Below, in pieces: positions 306-18,048 of a DNA stretch of 64,000 nucleotides (within the stretch, counting starts at the first letter, position 1; each line of letters starts with the position of its first letter). The position numbers and the translations under genes are program-made. Source of the DNA: Candidatus Omnitrophota bacterium (GTDB lineage Bacteria > Omnitrophota > Gorgyraeia > Pluralincolimonadales > Pluralincolimonadaceae); NCBI GenBank assembly GCA_003141835.1, contig PLNR01000009.1, positions 136,307-200,306 of the forward strand, written 5' to 3'. Under the pieces are notes generated by a model. The model worked only from the letters and a program-made list of their open reading frames with translations. It was not told the origin of the DNA and ran no database searches.

Positions 306-331
306 TTATTTCTCCTTTATGGGGACGTCCC

Positions 332-634
332 CTACATTCTTAACCTCATAGCCAATTCCAGCAACGTCGGCACAAGAAAATATTTGTTTATGTAATAAAT
401 GACTATCGTAGCGATCCACGGCGAGATGTCGACCGGCCCTAACGACGGTATTAACCTCCTTATCGGCGCCAGGATCGGGTCTGTAGCCCTGTTCAGGAAC
501 TGCACCAGCGGATTGAACGGGTCCGGGTTGACCCAGCTTATTACCGCGCGCAGGAATATAAGGATGCATACAATATTTACCAGCGCTTCGACCAAACGCG
601 CGGCCAGCACTATTAAATTGCTTAACGCGAACAT
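332..634 (-). CDS. yggT: YggT family small membrane protein (Ycf19-like)
   Basis: A 100-aa hydrophobic protein with an ISWV motif, placed directly after proC and yggS in the conserved yggS-proC-yggT arrangement. Confidence 0.75.
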   Translation of the reverse strand: MFALSNLIVLAARLVEALVNIVCILIFLRAVISWVNPDPFNPLVQFLNRATDPILAPIRRLIPSLGPVDISPWIATIVIYYINKYFLVPTLLELAMRLRM

Positions 635-635
635 A

Positions 636-1463
636 TCATTCCCCCGATAATTCTTTTGAGCGGCGGACAGCGGCTGCCACGGCCTTTTCGACTATCCTCT
701 TCATCCCGGAACGGTCGAATACCTTTATCGCCTGTTCGGTCGTGCCGCCCTTTGATGTCACGCGCTGGCGCAAGACGCCGGGTTCTTGTCCCGATCCTAT
801 AAGCAGCCGCGCCGAGCCGAGAGCGGTCTTCGATACGAGCCTCTTTGCCGTAACCCTGTCCATCCCGAGGCTGACAGCTGTCTCTATAAGTGCTTCTTTT
901 AGATAAAAGAAATAGGCCGGCCCGCTTCCCGATACCGCGGTGACAACGTCAAAATGTTTCTCATTTATATTTACCGTCTCACCCACGCTCGAAAATATCT
1001 CATTCGCAGCCTTCAGGTCTTTCGCCGCAGCATACCTGCCTTTGCAGATCGCCGAGATGCCTTCACCCACAAGCGCGGGCGTATTCGGCATCACCCTTAT
1101 GACGCGGGGCTTTGGTATGCGCGCCAGGGCCTTCTCTATCCTGCGGGTCGTTATGCCGGCAGCGATCGAGATATATAACCGGTTTTTACCATAAAAAGAT
1201 ATTTCAGCGAGCACCTCGTCGATATTCTGCGGCTTGACCGCGAAGATGACTATGTCGCAGTGCGCCGCGACCTCGAGTATGGATCTGGTGGTTGCCGATA
1301 TCCCGTATTTCTTAACGGCAGCCGCGCGTTTGGCCGCATCGCTGTCAAAACCTATGATGTTTGCTTTTTTGACGGCGCCGGATGAGAGGAGTCCGTTTAC
1401 TATCGCCCCGCCCATATTCCCTAGGCCGATAACGCCTATTTTTTTATCCGCCAAATATCGCAT
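636..1463 (-). CDS. proC: pyrroline-5-carboxylate reductase
   Basis: 275 aa with the N-terminal Rossmann motif IGVIGLGNMGGAIVNGL and overall ProC-like sequence. Confidence 0.9.
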   Translation of the reverse strand: MRYLADKKIGVIGLGNMGGAIVNGLLSSGAVKKANIIGFDSDAAKRAAAVKKYGISATTRSILEVAAHCDIVIFAVKPQNIDEVLAEISFYGKNRLYISIAAGITTRRIEKALARIPKPRVIRVMPNTPALVGEGISAICKGRYAAAKDLKAANEIFSSVGETVNINEKHFDVVTAVSGSGPAYFFYLKEALIETAVSLGMDRVTAKRLVSKTALGSARLLIGSGQEPGVLRQRVTSKGGTTEQAIKVFDRSGMKRIVEKAVAAAVRRSKELSGE

Positions 1464-2121
1464 GCCCTATCCTCAGTATATTTGCGCCTTCCTCTATCGC
1501 GACCTCGAAATCCTGGGTCATCCCCATGGAAAGATAATCCATCTTTACGTTCCTTATGCTCTTCGCCGAAACGAGTATCGCCACCTTTTTCAGCCTTTGG
1601 AAATACGGCCTCGACTCCTCCGGGTTCTCGGTGAACGGCGCCATCGTCATAAGGCCCATGACCCTTACATTGGGCAGTTCGGCTATCTTTTCCAAGAGCG
1701 GGAGCACCTGCTCAGGCGGTACCCCGTATTTTGTCGCCTCTTCAGAGGTCTTGACCTCTATCAATATCTTTTTAGGATACGAAAGGCCGGCGGAGCGTTT
1801 CGATATCTCCTCGGCCAGTTTCAGCGAATCAACCGAATGGATGAGGTCGAAGATCTGCACGGCCTCCTTGACTTTATTTGTCTGGAGGTGGCCGATAAGG
1901 TGCCACCTGGCCCTGTGCTCGATCGCCTTATATTTTATCTCCGCTGCCTGCACATAGCTTTCGCCTATATCCGTAACGCCGGCTGCGATGGCCTCTTCGA
2001 TCTGCGGGACGCCTACGGTCTTGGTCACGCAGACCAGGGTGATGTCCCGGTCGTTTTTGCCCACGTTCTGGGCAGCCCGACGGACCCGTTCCTTTACCGC
2101 CTGTATATTTTCAGGGATCAT
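1444..2121 (-). CDS. yggS: YggS family pyridoxal-phosphate homeostasis protein
   Basis: 225 aa matching the alanine-racemase-fold YggS family (VCVTKT, GHLQTNK, RIGHAIFG). It overlaps the proC start. Confidence 0.9.
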   Translation of the reverse strand: MIPENIQAVKERVRRAAQNVGKNDRDITLVCVTKTVGVPQIEEAIAAGVTDIGESYVQAAEIKYKAIEHRARWHLIGHLQTNKVKEAVQIFDLIHSVDSLKLAEEISKRSAGLSYPKKILIEVKTSEEATKYGVPPEQVLPLLEKIAELPNVRVMGLMTMAPFTENPEESRPYFQRLKKVAILVSAKSIRNVKMDYLSMGMTQDFEVAIEEGANILRIGHAIFGG

Positions 2122-2124
2122 TTT

Positions 2125-3381
2125 TTAGAAATACTCGCTGAAGATCTGGTTTACCCTGTCCAGTAATTTCCCTAACGGCGTGTTGCCGAAGAAATTCTTC
2201 CGGACTTTTTTCTTCGCACCCTCCCTCGCCCAGTATTTCACGAGTCCCACCGACACGACCTGTCCGGCGCCGGCCCTGGCCATGTCCCCTCCGGAAACTC
2301 CCTTAACCAGTCCCATCTTCACCGGCATGCTGAGATATAATTCCAGCATCTCGAGGAACCCGCCCAGGGAGGTCAAGTCGCCGGCGACTACGCATCCCAT
2401 CGCGGCTTCCTTGGCGGAACACATATCTTTCAGTTTGTCGCCTATCTTTTTAATAAGCCCTTCGGCTTCCGGCCTCACCGCATCGGCGACGGCCTTTCTC
2501 GAGACGGAACGGGTCGACCCTCCCAGCCTCAGGATTACCTTGTCGCTTTCCGGAGAAGCGCTTCCCTGCGCAGCCGGTTCGGCGGCCGCGGGCTTATCGA
2601 GGGTTATCTCGCGCTTTAACAGGTCTGCGGCGTATTCGCCGGGTATCTTAAAGTTATCCGCGATGAGCCCGGACATCCTGCCGCTTCCGGCCGGGATTAT
2701 CTCGATGGACCTTATCTCGCTGCCGTTATAGACGATTATATGAGTGGCCGAATAAGAGATGAATATGAATATGACGCCTAATTCTTTCTCGAGTTCCTCA
2801 AGTATCGCGTGCCCGGCCGCTATGCCGGAAAGGACTATATCCCTGATCTCGAAACCTGCGGTATTTATAGACCTCCTGACGTTGTGGAGGTTGGTCACAA
2901 GGGCGGTCACAAATTCCATGTCAGCCTCGAGCCGCGTGCCGAACATGCCGGTCGGGTCCTTGATCCCGTCCTGGCCGTCGAGGATGAAACCGCGCGTTAC
3001 GGAATGGACTATCTCCCTGTCGAACGGGAGCGCTATCGTCTTGGCGGCCTCGGTCACCCGCTCGACCTCATGTTTGCCTATCTCGTTCTCTTTCTCGGCG
3101 ACGGTCACGCTACCCTTGGTATTATATACGCGCAGGCTCGAGCCGTCGCAGTTCGTTACCAGTGATACGACCTTCGTCTTCGCCGCGGCCTCGGCCTTTT
3201 CGACGGCTGACGCCACCGATAAGGCCACTTCGCTTATATCCGATATCGTCCCGTTGTCGATTCCGCGGGACGGGACAGACGCGGACCCGAGGAGCGCGAC
3301 AGTATCCTTCTCCTCGGTCGAGCAGATCGAGCAGGTCACGAAGTCTTCGCTTATATCCAGGCCGGCCAATATCTTCTTCAT
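2125..3381 (-). CDS. ftsA: cell division protein FtsA
   Basis: 418 aa with an actin-like fold and an amphipathic C-terminal tail. It follows ftsQ with a 4-nt overlap. Confidence 0.9.
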   Translation of the reverse strand: MKKILAGLDISEDFVTCSICSTEEKDTVALLGSASVPSRGIDNGTISDISEVALSVASAVEKAEAAAKTKVVSLVTNCDGSSLRVYNTKGSVTVAEKENEIGKHEVERVTEAAKTIALPFDREIVHSVTRGFILDGQDGIKDPTGMFGTRLEADMEFVTALVTNLHNVRRSINTAGFEIRDIVLSGIAAGHAILEELEKELGVIFIFISYSATHIIVYNGSEIRSIEIIPAGSGRMSGLIADNFKIPGEYAADLLKREITLDKPAAAEPAAQGSASPESDKVILRLGGSTRSVSRKAVADAVRPEAEGLIKKIGDKLKDMCSAKEAAMGCVVAGDLTSLGGFLEMLELYLSMPVKMGLVKGVSGGDMARAGAGQVVSVGLVKYWAREGAKKKVRKNFFGNTPLGKLLDRVNQIFSEYF

Positions 3382-4175
3382 TTCTTTTCCGGTTTAAACG
3401 TCACCGCGGCATCGGTGAACCTGAGGTCTATCGAATCGATCTTCGACCTGTCCACTTTGGGATTGCTTAGCGCGTCGGCCAAAGAGTCTAGCTTCCTGTC
3501 GAAATCGTTATTGCCGACCACTATAGTCATCCCGTCCATGATGAAAAAAGCCTTATCCGGGTATGTCATATCGATGGCGGTGACCGCGGACTTCCCGAAT
3601 TCCTTCCTCGCGTTTATTCGCCGGAGGATATCGAGGGCCGTGCTTACCCTCCGGGACTTCACCCTCGTGCCCGCCTTAGGGTCCGCAAGCTGGGACTCCA
3701 GGCCGGTGATAAGGGGAAGTGAATCAAGGCTGCCCGTATCCGAGACGATGACGCCGTCGAAATCGACCGGCAGGACCTTCCCTACCCGTATCCTTGCCAC
3801 CGCCTCCCTGTCCTTTATTCTGGCGACGATGCGGTTCGGCAGGAACTTGGTTATTATCACGATCTGGAATTCGGGGTGCGCCGCTTTTATCTTTCCTGCG
3901 AGCGCCGCAGTGTCTACCGTGAAAAAATTGACGGGGTATTCGAGGTTGAAATATTCTTTCTGCATATATAAGTTCCCCTCAGTGCCGGGTTTTACTATCT
4001 CAACCTTCTTCACCTCGAAACATTGCGCGCCGGAGAGGAAATCACTGAACCACAGGATGGTCGCGGCCAGGACCAACACAAATATAAAAAAGACCACGAC
4101 GGCAACCTTGTTGCGTTTTATGAAATAACCGGCCTGTCTTGAGGCTTCTGAACCTGATTTTCTTTTTCTAGCCAT
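3378..4175 (-). CDS. ftsQ: cell division protein FtsQ/DivIB (single TM plus POTRA domain)
   Basis: 265 aa with an N-terminal transmembrane segment and a POTRA-like region, located between ddl and ftsA. Confidence 0.8.
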   Translation of the reverse strand: MARKRKSGSEASRQAGYFIKRNKVAVVVFFIFVLVLAATILWFSDFLSGAQCFEVKKVEIVKPGTEGNLYMQKEYFNLEYPVNFFTVDTAALAGKIKAAHPEFQIVIITKFLPNRIVARIKDREAVARIRVGKVLPVDFDGVIVSDTGSLDSLPLITGLESQLADPKAGTRVKSRRVSTALDILRRINARKEFGKSAVTAIDMTYPDKAFFIMDGMTIVVGNNDFDRKLDSLADALSNPKVDRSKIDSIDLRFTDAAVTFKPEKK

Positions 4176-4176
4176 A

Positions 4177-5079
4177 TTATTTAAAAGCCGATTCGAGCAT
4201 CTTTTCGCATAATAATGGGAAATCTATTCCTCTCGCCTTCGCCGCCTTCGGCAAAAGGCTGAGCTGCGTCATCCCGGGTATCGTATTCACCTCTAGGACG
4301 ACTATCTTCCCTTCATCGTCAAGTATCATATCGACCCTCGAGAAAGACCTGCAGCTGAGGGCGTTATGCGCCCTGATGCCGGCATCCTGCGCGAGCCTCG
4401 CCTCGCCTTCCTGGATCGGGGCGGGACATAGGTACTCGGTCATCCCGGCCGTATATTTTGCGATCTCATCGTAATAGCGCCTTTTCGGGACAACCTGTAT
4501 CACGGGAAGCGGTTTGCCTTCGAGAATTCCCACGGTAAGTTCTTTGCCGTGGATGAACTCCTCAAGGAGCACTTGGTCGCCGAACTTGAACGCCTCCTTG
4601 ATCGCGGCGTCCAACTCCTCGATCTTGTCTATTATGGAGACCCCTACCGAAGAGCCCTGCGCCGAAGGCTTGACGACTACCGGCGCCTGGAATTTCAGTT
4701 TTGGTTTTGAACCGTTATTTACCACATTGTATCCCGGGATGTTGAGCCCGGCCTTCTTGAACAATTTACGCGAGGCGATCTTGTCCATTCCGAGCTGGCT
4801 AGCTTTTACCTTTGAGCCGGTATAGGGTATCTTAAGATCCTCGAGTATCGCCTGTATCTGGCCGTCTTCGCCGAATGTCCCGTGCAGGGCTATGAAGGCG
4901 GCGTCGATGCCGGCAGACCTAAGCTCGTCCCTCGTCGGAAGCCATATCTCGATCGGGACGGCGTTATATCCTTTGCTTAAAAGCGCGTCGGTGATCGCCC
5001 TGCCGGAGCGCAGGGAAACCTCCCTCTCAGCGGATGGCCCTCCCATCAGCACGCCTATCCGCAAACCCACCTTATCCAT
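4177..5079 (-). CDS. ddl: D-alanine--D-alanine ligase
   Basis: 300 aa with the Ddl N-terminus (IGVLMGGPSAEREVSLRSG) and an ATP-grasp body. Confidence 0.9.
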   Translation of the reverse strand: MDKVGLRIGVLMGGPSAEREVSLRSGRAITDALLSKGYNAVPIEIWLPTRDELRSAGIDAAFIALHGTFGEDGQIQAILEDLKIPYTGSKVKASQLGMDKIASRKLFKKAGLNIPGYNVVNNGSKPKLKFQAPVVVKPSAQGSSVGVSIIDKIEELDAAIKEAFKFGDQVLLEEFIHGKELTVGILEGKPLPVIQVVPKRRYYDEIAKYTAGMTEYLCPAPIQEGEARLAQDAGIRAHNALSCRSFSRVDMILDDEGKIVVLEVNTIPGMTQLSLLPKAAKARGIDFPLLCEKMLESAFK

Positions 5080-5918
5080 TAAAACTCTCCTATCAATTTA
5101 GTCTCTAATTTTAACATAATTTGATGTTCTTTAAAAACTATTTTTTGTATCTCATCTATTAATTTCTTTACGTCGGAGGCCGTGGCGTTCGCCCTGTTTA
5201 TTATGAAGTTCGCGTGCTTCTCGGAGACAGCCGCGCCGCCTTCCTGCTTCCCCCTTAAGCCGCACTTGTCTATGACCTCCCATGCCGGCGAATTGCCTGA
5301 CGGGTTAAGGAAGATGCTTCCCACGCTGGGATAGCCGAGCTCCTGCGTTTTCCTCTTCTTTTCCAAATTTTTCTTTATCTCGGCCTCGATCTTATCCTTG
5401 GCTTTCTTTTCCAGCTTGAGTTTGGCCGAAACCAGGACCAACCCTTCGAGATTTGATGAACGGTACGAGAATTTCAGCCCGCTTTTATCAAGCCTGGGCT
5501 TTTCAAGGCCTTTGAGCGCGGTTATCTCCTCGACGAGGTCCCCTATCGCCTTGGACGGCCAGCCCGCATTCATCGTAAGCGCGCCGCCGAGCGTCCCGGG
5601 TATGCCGGCGAGGAATTCAAGCCCGCCCAGATCCTTCTCCGAGGCCTCCTTTATCAGCTCGTGGACCTTTATACCGCAACCAGCGACAACTGTCTCCCCG
5701 TCGAATTCAATCCCGTTAAATGCCGGCGCAGACAATGATATTACAAACCCGCGGATGCCCTTGTCTCCGACCAGGAGCTTGCTTCCGCCGCCTATTATGA
5801 AGTGATCTATCTTATGCGACTCGGAATAACGTAGGATATTCCGCAGATCGTCAATGTCCTCAGGGCAGACAAAAATATCCGCCGGGCCGCCGATCTTGAA
5901 CGTCGTATGGCGGCTCAT
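5079..5918 (-). CDS. murB: UDP-N-acetylenolpyruvoylglucosamine reductase
   Basis: 279 aa with an FAD-binding MurB N-terminus (FKIGGPADIFV...IIGGGSKLLV). Confidence 0.9.
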   Translation of the reverse strand: MSRHTTFKIGGPADIFVCPEDIDDLRNILRYSESHKIDHFIIGGGSKLLVGDKGIRGFVISLSAPAFNGIEFDGETVVAGCGIKVHELIKEASEKDLGGLEFLAGIPGTLGGALTMNAGWPSKAIGDLVEEITALKGLEKPRLDKSGLKFSYRSSNLEGLVLVSAKLKLEKKAKDKIEAEIKKNLEKKRKTQELGYPSVGSIFLNPSGNSPAWEVIDKCGLRGKQEGGAAVSEKHANFIINRANATASDVKKLIDEIQKIVFKEHQIMLKLETKLIGEF

Positions 5919-5953
5919 CGGTTCATCGAGCTTTATTTCGCCCCTGATGAAAC

Positions 5954-7354
5954 TTAAATCTTCTTTTTCGATCTCTTACCCCTTTTTTTCGAGAGCTCCT
6001 GCGCCACTTCCCCTGCTATAGAGGTGATATCACCGGCGCCCATCATCAGTACCATGTCGCCGCGTTTTATCTCTTTTAAGATATATTCCTTCAACCCTTT
6101 TTTAGGCAGGTATACGACGTCTTTATGGCCGTGCCTTTTCACTTCCTCATAAATGCTTTTACCGGAGATATTATCGATCTCGTCTTCTGACGCCGCGTAG
6201 ATATCCGTAAGTATAAGTTTATCCGCCGCGTCGAAGCAGGCAGCGAACCGGTCCTTCAGGTATTTTGTGCGCGAGAAACGGTGCGGTTGGAACGCGACTA
6301 TCAGCCGCTTGGGCTTCCAATTCCTGGCCGCGAGTATCGTCGCATTTATCTCGGCAGGATGGTGCGCGTAATCGTCTATCACTTTTATCCCGTTCCCCGA
6401 ATACCTTACCTGGAACCTGCGCGCGGCGCCGGTGAAATCCTCGACCGCCTTCTTTATCGTATCGAAATCGAGGCCGAGCTCCAGCGCCACGGCGAACGCG
6501 GCCATGGCGTTCGAGACGTTATGTATGCCCGGGATGTTTATGGCTGCCGGCCCGAGCCTTTTGCCACGGTAGACTATCTCGAACTCGGAATGTGAGTCGT
6601 GCATCTTTATCTTCTCGGGGTATATGTCGCGGCCTGCCGTAAGCCCGAAAGTGACGACTTTCTTCTCGTAACCGCGGAGCGCCCGCTTTAAGTTATCGCA
6701 GTCGCCGCACGCGAAGAGTTTCCCGCCCGGTTTTATCTTCTCTATGAATTTCAGGTACCAGGATATGATCTCGCCCATGTTCCTGTAATAGTCGAGGTGC
6801 TCGGCGTCGATATTCGTGATAACGCTGTAGAATGGTTTCAAATGGACGAAGGAACCGTCACTCTCGTCGGCCTCGACCACAAAATGCTCGCCCTTGCCCA
6901 CCCTGGCATTGCCCTCCAGCGATTTAACTTCGCCGCCCAGGATCGCGGTAGGGTCGAGCCCGGCCCTGTACAGGATATGGGCGATGAGCGATGATGTCGT
7001 CGTCTTGCCGTGGGCGCCGGTAACGGCGATCCCTTTCCTGCCGTTCATTATGAGCGCGAGCATATCGGCGCGGTGGAGAGTGGTTATCTTTTTATTGCGC
7101 GCGGCCTTAAGCTCCGGGTTCTCCGGCGTGATCGATGACGAGAATACGACGATATCGGCGCCTTCTATGTTCCTCTCGTGATGGCCTTCCCGGAACTTCC
7201 CGCCGAGCGATTCGAGCTTCTCCACGATGCGCGAACGCTTGACGTCCGAGCCTGAGACCTTATGGCCCTGCTTGAGCAGGACGAAGGCGATCGCGCTCAT
7301 CCCGATGCCGCCGATGCCGATAAAATGTATATGCTTCTTACCTTTAAGTTTCAT
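5954..7354 (-). CDS. murC: UDP-N-acetylmuramate--L-alanine ligase
   Basis: 466 aa with a Mur ligase P-loop (GAHGKTTT) and the MurC N-terminus (HFIGIGGIGMSAIA). Confidence 0.92.
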   Translation of the reverse strand: MKLKGKKHIHFIGIGGIGMSAIAFVLLKQGHKVSGSDVKRSRIVEKLESLGGKFREGHHERNIEGADIVVFSSSITPENPELKAARNKKITTLHRADMLALIMNGRKGIAVTGAHGKTTTSSLIAHILYRAGLDPTAILGGEVKSLEGNARVGKGEHFVVEADESDGSFVHLKPFYSVITNIDAEHLDYYRNMGEIISWYLKFIEKIKPGGKLFACGDCDNLKRALRGYEKKVVTFGLTAGRDIYPEKIKMHDSHSEFEIVYRGKRLGPAAINIPGIHNVSNAMAAFAVALELGLDFDTIKKAVEDFTGAARRFQVRYSGNGIKVIDDYAHHPAEINATILAARNWKPKRLIVAFQPHRFSRTKYLKDRFAACFDAADKLILTDIYAASEDEIDNISGKSIYEEVKRHGHKDVVYLPKKGLKEYILKEIKRGDMVLMMGAGDITSIAGEVAQELSKKRGKRSKKKI

Positions 7355-7370
7355 AGCCTTCCTATATATT

Positions 7371-7481
7371 CCTTGAAATTTAAGTCTCGCTTGGCCTTAG
7401 CTCCCAGTCAATCGGTTCGCTCGGGCTTTCTTTATTCCTCGTCCCGCAACGGCGGGACTGTGGCATAAATCGCCTCTTCGC
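7371..7481. repeat. intergenic repeat element, copy A, with an internal perfect hairpin GTCCCGC-AACG-GCGGGAC
   Basis: CCTTGAAATTTAAGTCTCGCTTGGCC ... TTTCTTTATTCCTCG ... CATAAATCGCCTCTTCGC. The same flanks recur at 18806-18886 with a different central hairpin. Confidence 0.6.
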
Positions 7482-7505
7482 TTACCGGATTGCCTGGTCG
7501 CAACG

Positions 7506-8612
7506 TCAAGTTAGTATACAATCAGCAAGACGCTTAGCCGCATCTGGAACAGCAAATTTTTTCGCCGCGACGGACATCGACCTTAACTTCGCCTTGTCGT
7601 CCTTCAACTCAAATATTTTTTCCTTCAGCATCTGCGGCGTCAGGCCGAACTCGTCCATGATGACCGTCCCGCCGGCATTTTCGAGCGCGGCGGCGTTATG
7701 GTACTGGTGCCCGCCGGCGAACCTGTAAGGTACCATTATCGAAGGCTTGCCCAGCGCGGCGATTTCGAACAGCGCAGTCGCGCCTGCACGCGAGACGATG
7801 AGGTCTGCCATCGCATACGAATATCCTATATCCTCGACAAAGTCGCATACGCAGCCGTCCACGCCGCTCCCTTCGTATCTCTTCCGCACATCATCGATGT
7901 TCCTTATGCCTGCGATGTGCAATATATTTATCGCTTTCTTCTCTTCCGCGTCCAAAATGCCGAGCATGCCGCTCACTATCTCGTTTATCTTCCGCGAGCC
8001 CTGGCTCCCTCCCAGGATAAGGACCGTGAACTTTGACGGGTCCAGTTTATAATATTTCAGCGCGTCTTCTTTTCTTACCGACAGGAGTTTCTTGCGTATC
8101 GGGTTTCCGGTAAATACCCCCTTATTACCGAATGTTTTTATGGTATCCTTGAAACTTACTGCAACACGCCTCGCCAAAAGCGCCAGTATTTTATTTGCCA
8201 GCCCGGCCTCGCAATTCTGCTCATGGAGAATAAGCGGTTTACCCATGAGCGCGGCAAATTTGCATATTGGGAAAGACGCGTACCCGCCGAAACCGACGAC
8301 GATGTCCGGCTTGTATCCAAATAATAATTTTATCGACTTAAAGCAGGCCGAGGTGAACCGCGCGAGGAATTTCATGAACTCCACCGGGTTCGCTGAAAGT
8401 TTCGCCACAGGCATAAGCCTGTACGGGATGCCGAATGACCCGAAGAGTTTCACCTCGAGGGGATGGTCTGTCCCTACCAGCAGGAGATCTGATACGCCCC
8501 TCTCTTTAAGTTCCTGCGCGAGGCTTAACCCGGGGAAGATATGGCCCCCCGTACCGCCGCACGCGATAAGTATCTTCATCCCATTTATATAATGTTTATG
8601 GTCGGGATTCAC
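7506..8612 (-). CDS. murG: UDP-N-acetylglucosamine--N-acetylmuramyl-(pentapeptide) pyrophosphoryl-undecaprenol N-acetylglucosamine transferase
   Basis: 368 aa with the MurG motif GGTGGH and a dcw-cluster position. Confidence 0.92.
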   Translation of the reverse strand: MNPDHKHYINGMKILIACGGTGGHIFPGLSLAQELKERGVSDLLLVGTDHPLEVKLFGSFGIPYRLMPVAKLSANPVEFMKFLARFTSACFKSIKLLFGYKPDIVVGFGGYASFPICKFAALMGKPLILHEQNCEAGLANKILALLARRVAVSFKDTIKTFGNKGVFTGNPIRKKLLSVRKEDALKYYKLDPSKFTVLILGGSQGSRKINEIVSGMLGILDAEEKKAINILHIAGIRNIDDVRKRYEGSGVDGCVCDFVEDIGYSYAMADLIVSRAGATALFEIAALGKPSIMVPYRFAGGHQYHNAAALENAGGTVIMDEFGLTPQMLKEKIFELKDDKAKLRSMSVAAKKFAVPDAAKRLADCILT

Positions 8613-9722
8613 TTAAATTTCTTCCTTCTCGTAAGGGCTCTCGCTGTATTTGGCGATATTGAGCAAGAGCGCCACGCCTATCATGTCGAAGACGAGCGAC
8701 GAACCTCCGTAACTTATGAACGGCAGCGGAAGGCCTTTCGTCGGAATGGATCCGGTAGCTACAGCTATATTTATTATCGCCTCGAGAGCTATGACCGAGA
8801 CGACGCCCAGCGCGACCAGGTGCCCGAATAGGTCCCTCGCCCTCAATGCTATCCTGAAACCCAGCCAGATGAAGAGCGCGAAAAGGATTATCACTGCGGC
8901 CGCGCCCACCAGCCCGAGCTCCTCGCCGATTATCGAGAATATGAAATCCGTATGCGCGCCCGGCAGGTAAAGCAATTTTTGCCGCGACTGGCCGAGGCCG
9001 ACGCCGAACGGGCCGCCGGATCCGAGCGCTATAAAAGACTGGATTATCTGGAACCCGACGCCTTGCGGGTCTTTCCAGGGATCCCAAAAAGCCACGATCC
9101 TCCTCATCCTGTAGGCCTTATGGAATATGAGCACGCCCAGTACCGGTATCGAGCCCAACAGCATCGGGACGAGGTGCCTTAATTTTATCCCGGCGACGAA
9201 GAGCATCATGAACGAGACGGCGCTTATCGCGACCGCCGTGCCGAGGTCAGGCTCGAGCAGGATCAGCCCGACGCTGAAACCGAGTATTATCATCGGCGGC
9301 ACGAAGCCTTCCCAGAAACTCTTTATCTCGCTTTGTTTCCTCGAAAGGAAATCGGCGAAATAGAGTATCATCACTATCTTGCACACCTGCGACGGTTGGA
9401 AGCTGAGGAACGAGAACCTGAACCATCGCCTCGCGCCGGCTATCTCGCGGCTTATCCCCGGGATGAGGACAAGCAACAGCAAAAAGAACGTGGCTATGAG
9501 GACCGGTTTCACATATTTCTTCAGGGATACGTAATCGACGGACATGACCATCAACGACGCCACTATGCCGATAATAAGATACAGCAGGTGGCGCTTGAGG
9601 TAATAGGCGCTGTCCTTCATGAATTCCTGGGCGCTTATCGCGCTGGCGCTGTAGACCATCACAACGCCGATCGCGAGGAGCACGACAGTCACCATGAAAA
9701 GCTGCGTCCGAAGTTTTCTCAC
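8613..9722 (-). CDS. ftsW: peptidoglycan glycosyltransferase FtsW (SEDS family)
   Basis: 369-aa polytopic membrane protein of the SEDS family, between murD and murG. Confidence 0.9.
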   Translation of the reverse strand: MRKLRTQLFMVTVVLLAIGVVMVYSASAISAQEFMKDSAYYLKRHLLYLIIGIVASLMVMSVDYVSLKKYVKPVLIATFFLLLLVLIPGISREIAGARRWFRFSFLSFQPSQVCKIVMILYFADFLSRKQSEIKSFWEGFVPPMIILGFSVGLILLEPDLGTAVAISAVSFMMLFVAGIKLRHLVPMLLGSIPVLGVLIFHKAYRMRRIVAFWDPWKDPQGVGFQIIQSFIALGSGGPFGVGLGQSRQKLLYLPGAHTDFIFSIIGEELGLVGAAAVIILFALFIWLGFRIALRARDLFGHLVALGVVSVIALEAIINIAVATGSIPTKGLPLPFISYGGSSLVFDMIGVALLLNIAKYSESPYEKEEI

Positions 9723-9728
9723 CCCGCC

Positions 9729-11093
9729 TTACCTCTCCTCTTTAAGCGCGCGGACTATCGCCTTGAATACCCGTCCGCGCTCCTCGAAATTCCTGAACAT
9801 GTCGAAACTCGCGCACATAGGCGAAAGGAGCACGCAATCCCCTTCTTCCGCCTCGCCGAACGACTTCTTCACCGCGTCTTCCATTGTATCCGCGAATATA
9901 TACGGGGCCGCGCCCGAAAGATGCTCCCTTATCTTCTCCTTCGCCTCGCCTATCAGGACGAGCTTCTTTACCTTCGCGCCTACGACCTGGCGCGCCTTCC
10001 TGAAATCGCTTCCTTTGTCGTGGCCGCCGGCGATAAGTATAACCGGTTTCGCGCACGACTCGAGCGCCATCATCGTCGCAAGGACAGTCGTCCCCTTGGA
10101 ATCGTTTATGAACTCCACGCCCCTTGTGGTCCTCACGTGCTCGAACCTGTGCTCGAGACCCTTAAAACTTACCAGCGCTTCCTTGATCTTCTTCGGGCTT
10201 ATCCCGAATATCGAAGCCACGCAGAGGCAGGCGAGGACGTTCTCGATATTATGCGTTCCTTTTATCTTAAGTTCCGACGCGCCGCAGATCCTCTGCGGTT
10301 TCCCTCCCCGGCCGATAAAGACCGAGCCGTCCTCGAAAAAGGCCGCGGCTTTTTTATTTTTCCGCGAGAAGAAAAGCGCATTTGCCTTTGTCCTCGACTT
10401 AAGTCTCCTGGCCAGCGGGTCGTCGTAATTCAAGACCGCCCAGTCGTCCTTTCCCTGGTTCTCGAATATCCGCGCCTTCGCGTTGATATACGCGCGGAGG
10501 TCCGGATGCCTGTCAAAATGGTTCTGCGAAATATTCAGCACGACGGCGACATGCGGCCTGAACGTCTTTACGCTCTCGAGCTGGAACGAGCTGGTCTCGA
10601 GGACAACGACGGAGTTCTTCTTGACCTTAGCTATCTCGCCGCAGATCGGGTTGCCGATGTTGCCGCAGACGACGGCGCGTTTTCCGCCCTTCTTCAATAT
10701 CTCTCCTATAAGCGTCGTGGTCGTCGATTTCCCGTTCGTCCCCGTTACCGCGACTATCGGCGCCTTGCAGCACAGGTAACCGAGCTCTACCTCGCCTATG
10801 ACCGGGACCTTATGCTTCGCGGCCCATTTCAAGACCTGCGAATCCTCGGGTACCCCTGGACTTATTACGATAAGATCTTTACCTGCGACGAACCCAGGGG
10901 TATGGCCTCCCACCTCGACTTTTATCCTTTTCCATTCGAGGAAGCCCTTCGCTTCTTTTAATTTCTGCGAGTCGCCGGAATCGGTAGCCCAGACTTTCGC
11001 GCCGAGCTTCTTGAGCAGGAATGCCGCGGCCATCCCGCTCTTCGCGAGCCCTACCACCGTCACTTTTTTCCCTTTGAAACTTTTTGGGTTCAT
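9729..11093 (-). CDS. murD: UDP-N-acetylmuramoylalanine--D-glutamate ligase
   Basis: 454 aa with a Mur ligase P-loop (GTNGKSTTT). Confidence 0.92.
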   Translation of the reverse strand: MNPKSFKGKKVTVVGLAKSGMAAAFLLKKLGAKVWATDSGDSQKLKEAKGFLEWKRIKVEVGGHTPGFVAGKDLIVISPGVPEDSQVLKWAAKHKVPVIGEVELGYLCCKAPIVAVTGTNGKSTTTTLIGEILKKGGKRAVVCGNIGNPICGEIAKVKKNSVVVLETSSFQLESVKTFRPHVAVVLNISQNHFDRHPDLRAYINAKARIFENQGKDDWAVLNYDDPLARRLKSRTKANALFFSRKNKKAAAFFEDGSVFIGRGGKPQRICGASELKIKGTHNIENVLACLCVASIFGISPKKIKEALVSFKGLEHRFEHVRTTRGVEFINDSKGTTVLATMMALESCAKPVILIAGGHDKGSDFRKARQVVGAKVKKLVLIGEAKEKIREHLSGAAPYIFADTMEDAVKKSFGEAEEGDCVLLSPMCASFDMFRNFEERGRVFKAIVRALKEER

Positions 11094-12181
11094 CTAAGTT
11101 TTAATGTCGATAGGCTGAAAAGCGCCAGTATTATCCCGATTATCCAGAACCTTATGACCACCTTTGTCTCGGACCACCCCTTCATCTGGAAATGGTGATG
11201 TATCGGCGCCATGAGGAATATCCTCTTTTTAAGCAGCTTGAACGACGCGACCTGGAGGATGACCGAGAGCGCCTCAAACACGAATATGCCGCCTACAATA
11301 AGGAGCAGGAGTTCTTTCTTTATGAATATCGCCACGATGCCTATCGCCCCGCCGAGCGCCAGCGAACCTGTATCACCCATGAAGACGGTAGCCGGGAACG
11401 AATTGAACCAAAGGAATCCCAGCCCGGCCCCGAGTATCGCCGCGCAAAATACGGCCAGCTCGCCCGCGCCCGGGATGAACATGATATTAAGATATTCGCT
11501 TATCTTGGCGTTACCGGTGATGTAGCTTAAAGCCATATAGGCGAGCGCAACTATCGCAGTGCAGCCTATCGCGAGCCCGTCGAGCCCGTCGGTCAGGTTG
11601 ACCGCGTTCGAGGCGCCGACAACCACGACCGTGGCAAATAATATATAGAATATCCCCAGCGGTACCATCGCGTTCTTTAAAAACGGCACATCGAGGTTCT
11701 TGCTGATATGCGGGTCGCAAACGACATAAAGCCCTATCAGGAAGCCGAGCATTATCTGTCCTATGAACTTCGACCTCGCGGTAAGCCCCTTGGATTTCAT
11801 CAGCCTTAACTTGAGGTAATCGTCAAGGAAACCGACGACGCAGAGCCATATTATCGATACGAGAGATAAAAGGACATACTTGTTCGTCAGGTCGCCCCAG
11901 AGAATAGTCGAGAGGACGACGGCCGTGACTATCAGGAGGCCGCCCATCGTCGGCGTCCCAGCCTTGTTCTTGTGCATCTCATAGATGCCTTTGGCGTCGT
12001 CCGAGGTGCGCACGACCTGCCCTATCTTGAATTCGCGCAATTTCTCGATGATATAAGGCCCCAATACCATGCAGAGAAGGAATGAAGTGATCGCAGCGCC
12101 GGCCGCGCGGAAAGTGATGTACTTGAATACGTTGAAACCGAAGAACAGATCCTTTAGCGGGTAGAGCAGGTGGTAAAACAC
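11090..12181 (-). CDS. mraY: phospho-N-acetylmuramoyl-pentapeptide transferase
   Basis: 363-aa polytopic membrane protein with MraY motifs (NAVNLTDGLDGLA). Confidence 0.92.
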   Translation of the reverse strand: MFYHLLYPLKDLFFGFNVFKYITFRAAGAAITSFLLCMVLGPYIIEKLREFKIGQVVRTSDDAKGIYEMHKNKAGTPTMGGLLIVTAVVLSTILWGDLTNKYVLLSLVSIIWLCVVGFLDDYLKLRLMKSKGLTARSKFIGQIMLGFLIGLYVVCDPHISKNLDVPFLKNAMVPLGIFYILFATVVVVGASNAVNLTDGLDGLAIGCTAIVALAYMALSYITGNAKISEYLNIMFIPGAGELAVFCAAILGAGLGFLWFNSFPATVFMGDTGSLALGGAIGIVAIFIKKELLLLIVGGIFVFEALSVILQVASFKLLKKRIFLMAPIHHHFQMKGWSETKVVIRFWIIGIILALFSLSTLKLR

Positions 12182-13479
12182 TTCTTGATCTCCTCCATTT
12201 TCATACCGCGCGAACCTTTTACCAGCACCAGATCCCCTTCTTTCAATATGCCTTTCAAGGCCTTAGCGGCCTCTACGGAATTTTTGAAACGGAGGAGGGA
12301 CATACCGCCGATGCCCTCCTCCTGTGCGCCCTCAAGGATATACCCGGAGAGCGTGCCCACACTCACGAAAAGATCCACTTTGGCTTTCGCCGCGAACTTG
12401 CCGATATCGCGATGGAGTTCCGGCCCGGCCGCGCCCAGCTCGAGCATGTCGCCTGCCACGAGCACCTTCCTCTTATACGGCTGCATGTCGCGCAGCGTCC
12501 CGACGGCGCTCTCCAGCGAAGCCGGGTTGGAATTATAGCAGTCAAAGATGAAATCTATCCCCTCGCACTTCTCGTATTCCATCCTGAGCTTCGGCAGGAC
12601 AAAATCCTCAAGGAGTTTCGACGCGGACCTTATCTCTATCCCATATAATGAAGCCGCGGAGATGGCTGCCATCGCATTGTAAACGTTATGTCTCCCTAGC
12701 ATCCTGAGCTTCACGACATACGTATCGTTGAGCGCGAAATTTATCCCGCAGTCGCTCTCCTGCGCGTTCTCTGCGACAAGATCGCAATCTTCGTTGAAGC
12801 CGAAAGTCACTACTTCCCCGCACATTTTTTTGGCGGTGATGGCGAGTATTTCGTCATCACCATTAACTACGGCCGAGCCGTCCTCCCCGATCCTCTTTAA
12901 CAGGTCAAGTTTCTCTTTCCTGACGTTCTCTACCGAGCCGAAGAACTCCAAATGCGACGGCCCTGCATTCAATATGATCCCGCAATTCGGCTCGACTATG
13001 TCGGCCAGATATCCGATCTCGCCGGGATGGTTCGTCCCCAGCTCGATGACCGCTATCTCGTGGCTTTCTTTTAATTTTAACAGCGTCTGCGGTACACCTA
13101 TGAAATTATTCTCCGTCCCTTCGTTCTTCAGGACTTTGTACCTGGATGACAGTATCAGGGCTAGCATCTCCTTCGTAGTCGTCTTCCCGTTCGAGCCGGT
13201 CAACGCGATGACGGGGATGTCGAACCTGTTGCGGTGGAACTTCGCGATCGCGCCTAGGGCCTTGACGGTGTCGTTTACCAGTATCACCGTAAAACCGGGT
13301 TTGGGCGAAGGTATATCGCGGCTTACTATTGCCCCGGCCGCGCCTTTCCATACAGCTTCATTCACAAAATCATGGCCGTCAAAATTAGGCCCTTTTACCG
13401 CTATGAAGAGCGAATGCTTCTCTATCTTCCTCGTATCGGTAGAAACATCCGGAAAGATGGTCTCCGAACCTCCATTCAC
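12154..13479 (-). CDS. murF: UDP-N-acetylmuramoyl-tripeptide--D-alanyl-D-alanine ligase
   Basis: 441 aa with a Mur ligase P-loop (GSNGKTTTKEM). Confidence 0.9.
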   Translation of the reverse strand: MNGGSETIFPDVSTDTRKIEKHSLFIAVKGPNFDGHDFVNEAVWKGAAGAIVSRDIPSPKPGFTVILVNDTVKALGAIAKFHRNRFDIPVIALTGSNGKTTTKEMLALILSSRYKVLKNEGTENNFIGVPQTLLKLKESHEIAVIELGTNHPGEIGYLADIVEPNCGIILNAGPSHLEFFGSVENVRKEKLDLLKRIGEDGSAVVNGDDEILAITAKKMCGEVVTFGFNEDCDLVAENAQESDCGINFALNDTYVVKLRMLGRHNVYNAMAAISAASLYGIEIRSASKLLEDFVLPKLRMEYEKCEGIDFIFDCYNSNPASLESAVGTLRDMQPYKRKVLVAGDMLELGAAGPELHRDIGKFAAKAKVDLFVSVGTLSGYILEGAQEEGIGGMSLLRFKNSVEAAKALKGILKEGDLVLVKGSRGMKMEEIKKCFTTCSTR

Positions 13480-13499
13480 CAGTTTCCCGCCTGTCGCCT

Positions 13500-14969
13500 C
13501 TAAGATATCTTTTGTGCTGAAAATGTTTTTTTCACAACCTCCCTGTCATCGAACACTATAGTCGTATTCTTGAATATCTGGTAGGCCTCATGCCCTTTCC
13601 CGGCTATAAGGACGCAATCGCCTGCCCCGGCCGTAGAGAGCGCCTCTTCGATGGCGCGCTGCCTGTCCAGTATGACCTTATAGTTCTTCTTCGATATTCC
13701 TGCCACGATCTCATCGGCTATTGCCTGCGGCTCCTCGCTGCGCGGGTTGTCGGATGTCACAATAACGATATCCGACATCTCGCTCGCAACCTTGCCCATG
13801 CGCGGGCGTTTAGTCCTGTCGCGGTCCCCGCCGCAGCCGAACACTACGATTATCTTTTTGCTGATCAGGGGTTTTAGCGCCGAGAGGACGTTGTATAACG
13901 CGTCATCGGTGTGCGCGTAATCCACGAATATTTTGAACGGTTGGCCGCAATCCACCGGCTCGAGCCTGCCCGGCACCGCCTTCATATCCTCAAGCCCGCG
14001 CTTCACCTCGCCTGCCGGGAACCCGAGGCTCATGCCGCAGGCAGCCGCCGCTGCCATATTATAGACATTGTGCATGCCGATAAGTTTTGAATTCACGTGC
14101 AGGCTGCCTTTTGGCGAATTTATAGTGAACTTCGTCCCGTCCAGCGAGAGCTTTATGTCCGAGGCGAGGTAATCGGCCACGAGCTTTGTCCCGTACGTCA
14201 CGACCTTGCCCTTAGAGACCTTGACCAGTTTCCTGCCCCACTCATCGTCTATGTTTATCACGGCATACGCGCTGTCTTTAAGCCCTTCGAAGAGGCGGCA
14301 CTTCGCCCTGAAATATCCGTCGAACGTCTTATGGTAATCGAGGTGGTCGCCGGTAAGGTTTGTGAATATCGCCGCGGAGAAATCTATGCCGCCTACCCTG
14401 TTCTGGTCGAGGGCGTGCGATGAGACCTCCATCACGAGGTGATCGCTGGAATTCCTTACCATCTCTCCCATGAAACCGTAGAGCTCGACCGGCCCGGGCG
14501 TGGTGTTCGTCGCGGGTATGATGCGTTTCCCTATCCTGTAACTTATCGTCCCGATAATGCCGGCCTTATGGCCTGCGGCCGCGATTATCGAATCCATCAG
14601 GTACGATATCGTCGTCTTGCCGTTTGTGCCGGTTATCCCGATGCAAGTCAGTTTCCCTGAAGGCCTGCCGAAGAAATTATCGGCTATCTTCGGCGCCGCG
14701 GCCCTCGAATCCCTGACGAATATCCTGGCCACATCATCGGGAAGCGCTATATCTTTTTCAAGGACGACGGCAACCGACCCTTTGTCAACGGCCTCATTGG
14801 CGAACTTGTGTCCGTCGAAATTCACGCCTGAGACGGCGATGAACAGCGAATCTTTCCCTGCCTTCTTGGAATCGCTGGATACGCCTTTGATATCTGTATC
14901 GAGGCCGCGCGGGAAGGCCGATTGCGCCTTATATTCCACGTCTTTCAACAGGTCTTTTAGTTTCATCAA
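13500..14969 (-). CDS. murE: UDP-N-acetylmuramoyl-L-alanyl-D-glutamate--2,6-diaminopimelate ligase
   Basis: 489 aa with GITGTNGKTT, located between ftsI and murF. Confidence 0.9.
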   Translation of the reverse strand: MMKLKDLLKDVEYKAQSAFPRGLDTDIKGVSSDSKKAGKDSLFIAVSGVNFDGHKFANEAVDKGSVAVVLEKDIALPDDVARIFVRDSRAAAPKIADNFFGRPSGKLTCIGITGTNGKTTISYLMDSIIAAAGHKAGIIGTISYRIGKRIIPATNTTPGPVELYGFMGEMVRNSSDHLVMEVSSHALDQNRVGGIDFSAAIFTNLTGDHLDYHKTFDGYFRAKCRLFEGLKDSAYAVINIDDEWGRKLVKVSKGKVVTYGTKLVADYLASDIKLSLDGTKFTINSPKGSLHVNSKLIGMHNVYNMAAAAACGMSLGFPAGEVKRGLEDMKAVPGRLEPVDCGQPFKIFVDYAHTDDALYNVLSALKPLISKKIIVVFGCGGDRDRTKRPRMGKVASEMSDIVIVTSDNPRSEEPQAIADEIVAGISKKNYKVILDRQRAIEEALSTAGAGDCVLIAGKGHEAYQIFKNTTIVFDDREVVKKTFSAQKIS

Positions 14970-16693: not shown

Positions 16694-16750
16694 TTATATC
16701 CTACCCTTGTTTTCGGCGGAAAACTATGGGTATGTATTAATAAAAAACTG

Positions 16751-17137
16751 CTATTTAGCTAAGTTCGCCTGCGCTTCCGGCCCTAAAGCGAAGAGGCTGG
16801 CGGCGGTCTGGCGTATCTTCCCGAAGAAACCCGCGGTGCGGGTGATATTTTTCATGCCGGTCTCGCCCGTCCCTGCCGAGACCAGGATAACGCGTTCCCT
16901 GGACGGGATCTCAAGCTTCATCTGCTTCGCGAGCAGCGTCCGCTCCAGCCTCGCCGGGGATTCCAGCTGCCTTACATTATATAGCAATACCTTATTGCGG
17001 TCAAGGAGGTCGGAATACATCTTGTCCTTGGCCTTTATGTCATAGCTAAGGTGCACCAGGGCCGTCTGCTGGCTTACATAAAGCAGCGCGACCATAGTCA
17101 CCATAACAGTTGTCGTCAAAAATTTATATGTGCTCAT
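16751..17137 (-). CDS. ftsL: cell division protein FtsL-like (single TM plus coiled coil)
   Basis: 128 aa with one transmembrane helix followed by a coiled-coil region, at the conserved position between rsmH and ftsI. Confidence 0.7.
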   Translation of the reverse strand: MSTYKFLTTTVMVTMVALLYVSQQTALVHLSYDIKAKDKMYSDLLDRNKVLLYNVRQLESPARLERTLLAKQMKLEIPSRERVILVSAGTGETGMKNITRTAGFFGKIRQTAASLFALGPEAQANLAK

Positions 17138-17145
17138 CTTAACCC

Positions 17146-18045
17146 CTAAACCCTTCTCGCGGCCCGCAGCTTCGCGCTCCGCGACCTCGGATTCTCCCCG
17201 ATCTCCCCTTCTTCCGGAGTCAGGGGTTTCTTGTAAAGGATATTCAATATCTTATTCGCCTTGGCTTCCCTGAACTTGTTCTTTACGATCCTGTCCTCGA
17301 GCGAATGGTACGAGATCACGCATATCGCTCCCGAAGGACTCAACAGCCCTATCGCGTCATCCAGCGCTTTCCCGAGGACGTTCAATTCGTCGTTTACCGC
17401 TATCCTGAGCGCCTGGAAAGTCCTCGTCGCCGGGTGCACCCTCCCGTGTTTGCCTTTGTACGGGACGGCGCGCATTATGACATCGACGAGCTTGGCTGTT
17501 GTATCGATCCGGTCCTCTTCCCTGCGCTCGACGATAGCTTTAGCTATCCTGCGGCTGAACCTCTCCTCACCGTATTCATAAATGATCCGGCTCAGGTCGG
17601 CCTCAGGGTAGCGGTTCACCATTTCTTCCGCCGTCAGTTCAGCCCCCTTATCCATGCGCATATCCAACGGGGCGTCGTAACGGAAGCTGAACCCTCTCTC
17701 AGCCTTGTCGAACTGCATCGAAGAGACGCCGAGATCGAACAAGAAACCGTCGGCTCTTTCGATATTCGATTTTTCAAAGATCGCTTTCAACTCACCAAAG
17801 TTGCCTTGCACCAAAAGGACGTTCGTCTCCCCGAACCTCCTTAATCTCTCTTTAGCTATCTCAAGCGCTTCGCCGTCTCGGTCTATCCCTACCAGCCTGC
17901 CGCCCGGCAATATCTTTTCCAGTATCGCCTCGGCATGGCCGCCGAGCCCGAGCGTGCAATCGACTATCGTCTTGCCCGGCGCCGGCGCGAGCGCCTCAAC
18001 AACCTCTTTTAAAAGAACGGGCTTATGTATTATCTCCCCGCTAAT
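17146..18045 (-). CDS. rsmH: 16S rRNA (cytosine1402-N4)-methyltransferase RsmH; start codon uncertain (non-canonical)
   Basis: The ORF track starts at a TTG at 17910. The conserved RsmH N-terminus (IIHKPVLLKEVVEALAPAPGKTIVDCTLGLGGHAEAILEK) is encoded upstream, in frame, from 18045 to 17911. That stretch has no ATG, GTG or TTG; only ATT at 18045 and ATA at 18033 or 18030 are available. Confidence 0.8.
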   Translation of the reverse strand: MSGEIIHKPVLLKEVVEALAPAPGKTIVDCTLGLGGHAEAILEKILPGGRLVGIDRDGEALEIAKERLRRFGETNVLLVQGNFGELKAIFEKSNIERADGFLFDLGVSSMQFDKAERGFSFRYDAPLDMRMDKGAELTAEEMVNRYPEADLSRIIYEYGEERFSRRIAKAIVERREEDRIDTTAKLVDVIMRAVPYKGKHGRVHPATRTFQALRIAVNDELNVLGKALDDAIGLLSPSGAICVISYHSLEDRIVKNKFREAKANKILNILYKKPLTPEEGEIGENPRSRSAKLRAARRV

Positions 18046-18048
18046 TGC

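Follow-up and report, generated by a model that had tools for sequence, protein, structure and literature searches.

A dcw cluster that ends at ftsA: an orphan FtsA with altered motifs in an Omnitrophota lineage reported to lack FtsZ

We analyzed a 64,000-nt stretch of DNA (hereafter the window; contig PLNR01000009.1 of assembly GCA_003141835.1) from a Candidatus Omnitrophota bacterium, in which the division and cell wall (dcw) gene cluster ends with ftsA and runs directly into yggS. FtsZ is the most conserved bacterial division protein, and the rare lineages whose cells divide in its absence serve as natural experiments. In the window, the canonical dcw order mraZ-rsmH-ftsL-ftsI-murE-murF-mraY-murD-ftsW-murG-murC-murB-ddl-ftsQ-ftsA is intact, and the canonical terminal gene, ftsZ, is missing from its place directly after ftsA, where a spacer of 3 nt leads to yggS. 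We propose that ftsZ was lost in an ancestor of Omnitrophota, that FtsA was retained and remodelled, and that these bacteria would divide independently of FtsZ with FtsA as a scaffold; we put the probability of this reading at roughly 0.8. That Omnitrophota lack FtsZ is a real observation, and one already on record (Seymour et al. 2023; Pende et al. 2021); the altered state of the retained FtsA appears to be undescribed in the literature that we searched.

The TAA stop codon of ftsA occupies positions 2125–2127 and the ATG start codon of yggS positions 2119–2121, which bears out the 3-nt distance given in the initial annotation; its description of a dcw cluster complete from mraZ (18049–18498) to ftsA likewise agrees with the Pfam matches along the cluster. 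At the other end of ftsA, the start codon overlaps the ftsQ stop codon in the sequence ATGA, and yggS and proC overlap by 20 nt. Because these junctions either overlap or measure 3 nt, dcw-yggS-proC-yggT is read as one tightly packed operon. The genes for peptidoglycan synthesis and the late divisome are kept (murB-G, mraY, ddl, ftsW, ftsI and ftsQ).

Searches of the window for the missing gene were negative, as the initial annotation had claimed for ftsZ and for any open reading frame (ORF) with a tubulin motif: tblastn with FtsZ from E. coli and B. subtilis and SepF from B. subtilis gave a best E-value of 2.1, Pfam scans of the approximately 54 window ORFs found no Tubulin (PF00091) or FtsZ_C (PF12327) domain, and a relaxed tubulin signature, G[GAS]G[TS]G[STAG]G, has zero occurrences in a six-frame scan of the 64 kb. 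As a positive control, the same tblastn search recovers ftsZ right after ftsA in 37 of 37 loci from Chloroflexota and Syntrophobacteraceae whose sequence continues beyond ftsA, and about 335 kb of Omnitrophota-type loci yielded no FtsZ or tubulin. Remnants of ftsZ or sepF, sought in the gaps downstream of ftsA in six loci (L014, L015, L016, L059, L060 and L062; 34–421 nt), amounted to noise (E of at least 0.47). The absence of sepF, also pointed out at the outset, stands as an observation in the window but carries no weight, because Gracilicutes generally have no SepF (Pende et al. 2021).

We evaluated whether a chimeric join between ftsA and yggS could have deleted ftsZ. The sequence is a metagenome assembly with a MEGAHIT-style contig name, and the two assemblies that carry the junction could stem from the same reads. 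However, a 443-kb ENA contig and a 12.5-kb Logan contig both encode the exact window FtsA protein and share the downstream order yggS, proC, yggT, a PNP-family gene, ileS and onward, and each matches the window at 100% identity over the junction. The relative L004, at 85% nucleotide identity, is collinear with the window through the junction, the same gene order is present in 13/13 related species-level genomes with downstream DNA, and the 3-nt spacing and the intact FtsA C-terminus give no sign of truncation. With two identical assemblies and collinear junctions in 13 other species, the chimeric join that the initial annotation had named as a refutation is excluded, and the probability that we leave to an artefact is negligible.

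The window organism belongs to Omnitrophota, class Gorgyraia, order Pluralincolimonadales (GTDB Koll11; o__UBA6215). All FtsA homologues at 52–99% identity come from Candidatus Omnitrophota, and the next matches lie at about 31%. RIFCSPLOWO2_12_FULL_51_24 and SM23_29 are tabulated under this class and order, in which relatives have estimated genome sizes of about 1.2–1.5 Mb (Seymour et al. 2023). We scanned the locus in one genome per GTDB species, which returned 17 Omnitrophota loci and 38 loci from Chloroflexota and Syntrophobacteraceae, with sequence past ftsA available in 13 of the former and 37 of the latter; the metagenome-assembled genome UBA6215 itself is among the 17 and has the same ftsA locus type. 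In all 13 related Omnitrophota loci with downstream DNA, ftsA is followed by yggS-proC-yggT, and no ftsZ lies on either side of ftsA in the available sequence (up to 10 kb).

An exhaustive profile search through 1.8 billion representative proteins brought up more distant FtsAs as a graded series, and in a neighbour-joining (NJ) tree they form one clade of 42 sequences with the window family, every named member of which is from Omnitrophota. Six distant clade members were looked up in their contigs, one of them in the complete genome CP070655.1 (L063; 1.14 Mb, 1,137,816 bp). The ftsA gene ends the dcw cluster in six of six and is followed by ftsZ in none; the genes after it are proC-yggT, gltB, prpD, yggS-proC-yggT, a proC fragment and a methyltransferase gene. 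Altogether, ftsZ is absent after ftsA in 19 Omnitrophota-type loci with downstream sequence, namely the window, the 13 related species and five of the six distant clade members with downstream DNA. A rule built on a C-terminal '..[DE]YF' to recognize the Omnitrophota-type FtsA was dropped in favour of the NJ clade, as it caught four to six ordinary FtsAs.

Erosion at the ftsA end of the cluster varies by lineage: L059 is without yggS, gltB stands after ftsA in L060 and prpD in L061. The proC fragment in CP070655.1 encodes 82 residues (7352–7596), and in the same genome the dcw cluster is broken upstream (1–4088), where feoAB and a second ddl-like gene precede murB. Past the window end, locus L001 continues as yggS-proC-yggT-PNP-ileS-DksA/TraR zinc finger-lspA-lgt-rluD (11261–19181), with a gene for a 256-residue coiled-coil protein after rluD (19232–20002). 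We take this order to resemble the ylmE-sepF-ylmG-...-divIVA-ileS-ylyA-lspA-rluD region after ftsZ in B. subtilis, and the resemblance suggests that the block from yggS to rluD is ancient and that only ftsZ was taken out.

For the absence of ftsZ from whole genomes we rely on published surveys and KEGG Orthology (KO) lists. The phylum-wide survey found Omnitrophota to be without ftsZ except for one archaeal contaminant, this sole case having 89% identity with an archaeal protein (Seymour et al. 2023, Supplementary Note 1), and also reports that ftsY is missing throughout the lineage. The KO lists of two Omnitrophota genomes in that study include ftsI, ftsQ, ftsK, mreB and mreC, to which one of the two adds ftsW, ftsA and ftsB; K03531 is not there. 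FtsZ is listed as absent from Omnitrophica in a figure legend of Pende et al. 2021, whose supplementary table records FtsA but no FtsZ and no SepF in Ca. Omnitrophus magneticus, RIFOXYB12_FULL_50_7 and SM23_29. The SM23_29 FtsA (P0036) belongs to the FtsA family of the window, at 52% identity. Several reviews of the Planctomycetes-Verrucomicrobia-Chlamydiae (PVC) group state, on the contrary, that Omnitrophica possess FtsZ; they do so because they had drawn on the misassigned genome OLB16. In earlier surveys this was the one 'Omnitrophica' genome to have FtsZ, and it lies outside the phylum (Seymour et al. 2023, Supplementary Note 2).

These records bear on whether ftsZ has merely been relocated, with a normal FtsZ encoded elsewhere in the genome and still partnering FtsA. 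Such a gene could lie beyond the 64 kb given, or the roughly 72 kb reached with L001, the older PVC reviews credit Omnitrophica with FtsZ, and a 2025 paper calls the dcw genes 'highly conserved' in Omnitrophota. Yet the review claims trace to OLB16, the phylum survey reports no ftsZ beyond the archaeal contaminant, the three proteomes with FtsA and without FtsZ include SM23_29 from the window's own FtsA family, and the window FtsA has Glu where 136 of 143 FtsA representatives outside the clade carry Arg. We therefore consider relocation very unlikely. Between the two options raised in the initial annotation, it is the second, an FtsZ-less organism that keeps FtsA, that the Omnitrophota identity of the window and both surveys support.

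The retained protein is an FtsA by sequence, fold and position. It scores 218.2 bits against the NCBIfam equivalog model TIGR01174 (cut-off 175.85), Pfam PF14450 alone staying under its cut-off (27.1 versus 31.8), and the family profile matches PDB FtsA 7q6f over residues 4–378 (E=7e-58). An AlphaFold2 model based on a 146-sequence alignment has a mean predicted local distance difference test score (pLDDT) of 92.8; an earlier run on a 17-sequence family alignment gave a pLDDT of 44 and was discarded. The top Foldseek matches of the model are all FtsA (7q6i, target TM-score (TMt) 0.86–0.87; 7q6d, 0.82; 4a2a, 0.77–0.79), with PilM and MreB behind. The fold with the SHS2 subdomain 1C inserted in place of subdomain 1B, the C-terminal helix and the position after ftsQ are all present.

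The ratio of nonsynonymous to synonymous substitution rates (dN/dS) of ftsA is 0.03–0.17 in 12 pairs, and the gene is functional and under strong purifying selection. Within the family, 1C is the best-conserved part (mean pairwise identity 0.79 versus 0.66 overall) and 2B the least conserved subdomain (0.50); compared with canonical FtsAs, 1C is 43% identical and the whole protein 29%. The last 14 residues make an amphipathic helix as strong as the membrane-targeting sequence (MTS) of E. coli FtsA: the helix KLLDRVNQIFSEYF has a hydrophobic moment of 0.66 versus 0.57 for the E. coli MTS, a value that 0.5% of shuffles reach. Subdomain 2B also carries an Ala/Pro/Ser-rich insertion (KPAAAEPAAQGSASPESD; FtsA residues 263–280, window 2542–2595, - strand; predicted with low confidence, pLDDT ~64), which is present only in the closest relatives of the window FtsA (at least 89% identity).

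Where canonical FtsAs have the nucleotide motifs D-x-G-T, D-x-G-G-G-T and G-G, the window FtsA reads D-I-S-E, F-I-S-Y-S-A and A-G-D. The phosphate-1, phosphate-2 and adenosine motifs are degenerate in 16/16 members of the window family and intact in every control, the family replacements being D-x-G-T to D/N-I-S-x, D-I-G-G-G-T to F/Y-I-S-Y-S-A-T-H and T-G-G to A-G-D/E/V; HMMER's own alignment to PDB FtsA yields the same correspondences. Outside the clade, all 143 representatives have G16, all have G212 and 140 have the G-G pair; the other FtsAs of the Omnitrophota clade mostly retain the core D-x-G. These are per-position counts; a strict canonical regular expression for phosphate-2 was dropped, as it flagged many ordinary FtsAs. 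To judge from the motifs, nucleotide binding has probably been lost in the order to which the window belongs.

The second set of changes lies in subdomain 2B, at the positions equivalent to E. coli R300 and E303, which are reportedly in contact with FtsZ. The R300 equivalent is Arg in 136/143 representatives outside the clade and in 4/25 inside, and the E303 equivalent is Glu in 130/143 outside and in 9/25 inside, the 25 being clade representatives from outside the window family. This distribution suggests that the 2B arginine was lost phylum-wide after the loss of FtsZ and that the nucleotide pocket was lost later, in one order. Subdomain 2B is required for FtsZ binding, and 1C for the recruitment of FtsQ and FtsN (PMC4281207); PDB 4A2A, among the Foldseek matches, is a complex of FtsA with an FtsZ peptide.

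With the canonical nucleotide motifs and the FtsZ-contact residues lost, and with PilZ and pilT-like genes near the cluster in several genomes, one might suppose that the FtsA homologue has been repurposed outside division, for example in a PilM-like role. We find this decidedly unlikely, given that ftsA is the last dcw gene and translationally coupled to ftsQ in every genome examined, that FtsA beats PilM in Foldseek (E-values of 1e-39 versus 1e-21) and that the protein passes the FtsA equivalog model.

Several points weigh against a loss of ftsZ followed by remodelling of FtsA. Our direct scan covers about 72 kb of the 443-kb contig, the published surveys were made with standard FtsZ marker models, past which a tubulin homologue that is very divergent could slip, and the 2025 paper speaks for conservation of the dcw genes, though it does not show ftsZ specifically. 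The FtsA clade is drawn from an unbootstrapped NJ tree, and only four clade clusters outside the window family bear an Omnitrophota name. About half of the clade still has a basic residue (K or R) where R300 would stand, the function of R300 and E303 as FtsZ contacts is one that we presume, and the loss of nucleotide binding is read from motifs. Finally, canonical FtsA, too, has its lowest subdomain conservation in 2B (0.87–0.98 of the overall identity, versus 0.75 here), so that the contrast in 2B conservation is modest.

The reach of the marker models bears in particular on a further alternative, in which the place of FtsZ is taken by an undetected, highly divergent protein, tubulin-like or otherwise cytoskeletal, that FtsA tethers via a remodelled 2B surface. 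Surveys with marker hidden Markov models can overlook homologues that have diverged far, a new partner would fit with the conservation, inside the family, of both the 2B region and the replaced nucleotide motifs, and the window contains ORFs without family assignment (29093–30058, 61247–62245 and 62227–63990). On the other hand, no such protein adjoins ftsA in the 19 loci with downstream sequence, and the 2B positions vary over the wider clade and show no new consensus; a replacement of this kind is in our view unlikely.

Based on these observations, we propose that: (i) ftsZ was cleanly excised from the place that it ancestrally held between ftsA and the block yggS-proC-yggT, (ii) FtsA kept its actin-like fold, 1C and the C-terminal amphipathic helix after the loss of its partner, and (iii) division would be independent of FtsZ, with membrane-bound FtsA as a cytoplasmic scaffold or activator for the septal peptidoglycan machinery (FtsQ/FtsL/FtsW/FtsI) encoded in the same operon. 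In Pluralincolimonadales this scaffold would probably work without nucleotide. The role of FtsA, which we infer, would resemble that of MreB in guiding RodA-PBP2; as in Chlamydia, MreB itself may also play a part. The FtsA of E. coli assembles into curved double filaments of antiparallel arrangement, in which 1C provides the lateral contacts; these filaments, like MreB, favour negative Gaussian curvature and are proposed to align FtsWI, and FtsZ is seen as a long-range organiser (Nierhaus et al. 2022, PMC7613929). Omnitrophota nanobacteria pass 0.2-µm filters (Seymour et al. 2023), and we speculate that long-range organisation may be dispensable in cells of this kind. The most specific form of the proposal makes FtsA the primary division organiser, in Pluralincolimonadales a nucleotide-independent membrane filament or scaffold in which 1C would position and activate FtsQ/L/W/I in very small cells; this is tentative, and we regard it as possible rather than probable.

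Alternatively, MreB and the elongasome could mainly organise division, as in Chlamydia, with FtsA as an accessory adaptor. The KO lists of the two Omnitrophota genomes contain mreB and mreC, and one of them adds mreD, rodA and mrdA; Chlamydia, an FtsZ-less PVC lineage, uses MreB (Nierhaus et al. 2022, PMC7613929); and a SpoIID homologue is encoded in the window. However, there is no mreB in the window or the related loci, and Chlamydiae and Planctomycetes dropped FtsA along with FtsZ, whereas here ftsA is kept, constrained, at the dcw end. Because ftsA closes the dcw operon and is strongly constrained there, we argue for a central role of FtsA and hold a leading role of MreB to be somewhat unlikely, although the two explanations are not mutually exclusive.

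The positions of the dcw genes, of the genes that follow them and of the FtsA elements discussed above are collected in Table 1. Two genes at the start of the cluster need comment. The ftsL-like gene is assigned from its position and from weak NCBIfam FtsL matches (E=1.6e-4 and 5.8e-4, both below cut-off). In rsmH, the first ~40 residues lie upstream of the first ATG, GTG or TTG yet match the MraW profile (17146–18048, - strand), and the reading frame runs on directly from the mraZ stop codon (…EKG* AISGEIIHKPVLLKEV…); on this pattern the start codon is probably ATA or ATT.

Table 1. Features of the dcw locus and of the retained FtsA, in window coordinates
Feature	Position	Strand	Evidence or remark
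mraZ, first dcw gene	18049..18498	-	Pfam MraZ E=1.4e-44
rsmH (mraW)	17146..18030	-	Pfam Methyltransf_5 E=3.5e-96, match from profile position 45
ftsL-like small membrane/coiled-coil gene	16751..17137	-	placed between rsmH and ftsI
ftsI, murE, murF, mraY, murD, ftsW, murG, murC, murB, ddl	4177..16693	-	Pfam match each
ftsQ	3378..4175	-	Pfam FtsQ_DivIB_C E=2e-8
ftsA, 418 residues, Omnitrophota-type orphan FtsA	2125..3381	-	SHS2_FTSA E=3e-25; TIGR01174
FtsA phosphate-1 region GLDISED, degenerate	3343..3363	-	canonical G-L-D-x-G-T-x; alignments and independent HMMER alignment
FtsA subdomain 1C (SHS2 insert)	2905..3144	-	Pfam SHS2_FTSA E=3.3e-25, residues 80-159
FtsA phosphate-2 region FIFISYSATH	2740..2769	-	canonical V-V-D-I-G-G-G-T-x-D
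FtsA 2B helix RPEAEGL	2455..2475	-	Glu and Gly at the positions of E. coli R300 and E303
FtsA adenosine motif region VVAGDLTSLGGF	2356..2391	-	canonical x-L-T-G-G-x
FtsA C-terminal amphipathic helix GKLLDRVNQIFSEYF (membrane-targeting sequence)	2128..2172	-	conserved across family
Spacer AAA, 3 nt, ftsA stop to yggS start	2122..2124	-	slot of ftsZ in other bacteria
yggS (pyridoxal-phosphate-binding YggS/YlmE family)	1444..2121	-	TIGR00044 183 bits (cut-off 106.25 bits); Pfam Ala_racemase_N
proC (pyrroline-5-carboxylate reductase)	636..1463	-	Pfam P5CR_dimer, F420_oxidored
yggT (YlmG family membrane protein)	332..634	-	Pfam YGGT E=5.7e-20

Directly upstream of mraZ lie genes for a PilT-like ATPase and a PilZ-domain protein (19352–20929, - strand). 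PilZ-domain genes are also found beside or near ftsA in two other Omnitrophota genomes (L061, 7234–7668; L063, 10208–10432 and 11140–11862), and genes for PilZ, a receptor of cyclic di-GMP, are recurrently associated with the dcw cluster. The SpoIID homologue (54914–56086, - strand; Pfam SpoIID E=1e-27) is encoded between queA and ruvB. In FtsZ-less Chlamydia, a SpoIID homologue acts on septal peptidoglycan, and by analogy the window homologue may be relevant to division. Just upstream of the dcw cluster, the window contains RNase P RNA (class A, 187 bits) with adjacent tRNA-Val(CAC) and tRNA-Met(CAT) genes (20862–21272 and 22452–22629, - strand). The product of another window gene (21690–22421, - strand) combines a CT398-like coiled-coil hairpin with a C4 zinc ribbon and belongs to a family named after a Chlamydia protein.

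Further from the cluster, a low-GC island at 28000–30060 (GC 0.38–0.44 versus 0.54 for the window) holds a radical-SAM gene (28135–29100) and an overlapping ORF of 321 residues without a Pfam or NCBIfam family (29093–30058). It is flanked by a multi-ferredoxin protein gene and rpoD and was possibly acquired horizontally. Two overlapping large ORFs of 332 and 587 residues (61247–63990, - strand) have no Pfam family, the shorter one giving a weak match, below cut-off, to the Leptospira-type N-terminal domain NF047433.

How do these findings compare with known systems? The closest is the set of FtsZ-less Omnitrophota already reported, which share phylum and trait with the window organism: no ftsZ or sepF, and FtsA present. 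Seymour 2023 and Pende 2021 give presence and absence only, and neither the ftsA-yggS-proC-yggT locus nor the altered FtsA motifs are described there. Chlamydiae, also members of the PVC group, resemble the window in keeping peptidoglycan and ftsQ/L/W/I-type genes in the absence of FtsZ, and their septal peptidoglycan ring is organised by MreB, RodZ and FtsK. They differ in that FtsA is absent as well (Pende 2021), whereas the window FtsA is retained and constrained, and in lifestyle, Chlamydiae being obligate intracellular bacteria and Omnitrophota free-living or epibiotic nanobacteria. FtsZ-less Planctomycetota (Phycisphaerae, Planctomycetales and anammox bacteria) have likewise lost ftsZ and partly kept the dcw genes, but ftsA and ftsB are lost too and the cluster is often fragmented and non-essential, in contrast to the cluster from mraZ to ftsA that is intact here. 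The parallel with PVC lineages drawn in the initial annotation thus holds as far as FtsZ-less members of the group exist; it does not extend to FtsA, which Planctomycetes and Chlamydiae are also without. Within the PVC group, retention of FtsA without FtsZ is specific to Omnitrophota.

With the canonical FtsA-FtsZ proto-ring of E. coli and T. maritima (PDB 7Q6D, 4A2A), the window system shares the FtsA fold, 1C, the membrane helix and the position after ftsQ; it departs from it in having no FtsZ, in the R300/E303 equivalents, which are not conserved, and in the replaced D-x-G-T, D-x-G-G-G-T and G-G motifs. The MreB-RodA-PBP2 elongasome offers an analogy that we draw by inference, as a membrane-bound actin-like filament there guides a synthase composed of a SEDS (shape, elongation, division and sporulation) protein and a class B penicillin-binding protein without a tubulin (Nierhaus 2022); it differs from an FtsA-FtsWI system in its actin family and its partners.

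The absence of ftsZ from Omnitrophota has so far been on record only in a supplementary note and a figure legend, and was contradicted by several PVC reviews. The present analysis adds synteny-level confirmation across about 20 genomes, a resolution of the contradiction in the PVC literature and the signature of an orphan FtsA. This protein carries in its sequence the marks of life without FtsZ: the near-invariant 2B arginine is gone, and 1C and the membrane helix are constrained. With a defined protein in hand, what FtsA does besides tethering FtsZ becomes testable. If FtsA is indeed the primary organiser of division in these cells, Omnitrophota would have a natural 'FtsA-only' divisome, standing between the elongasome and the classical Z-ring.

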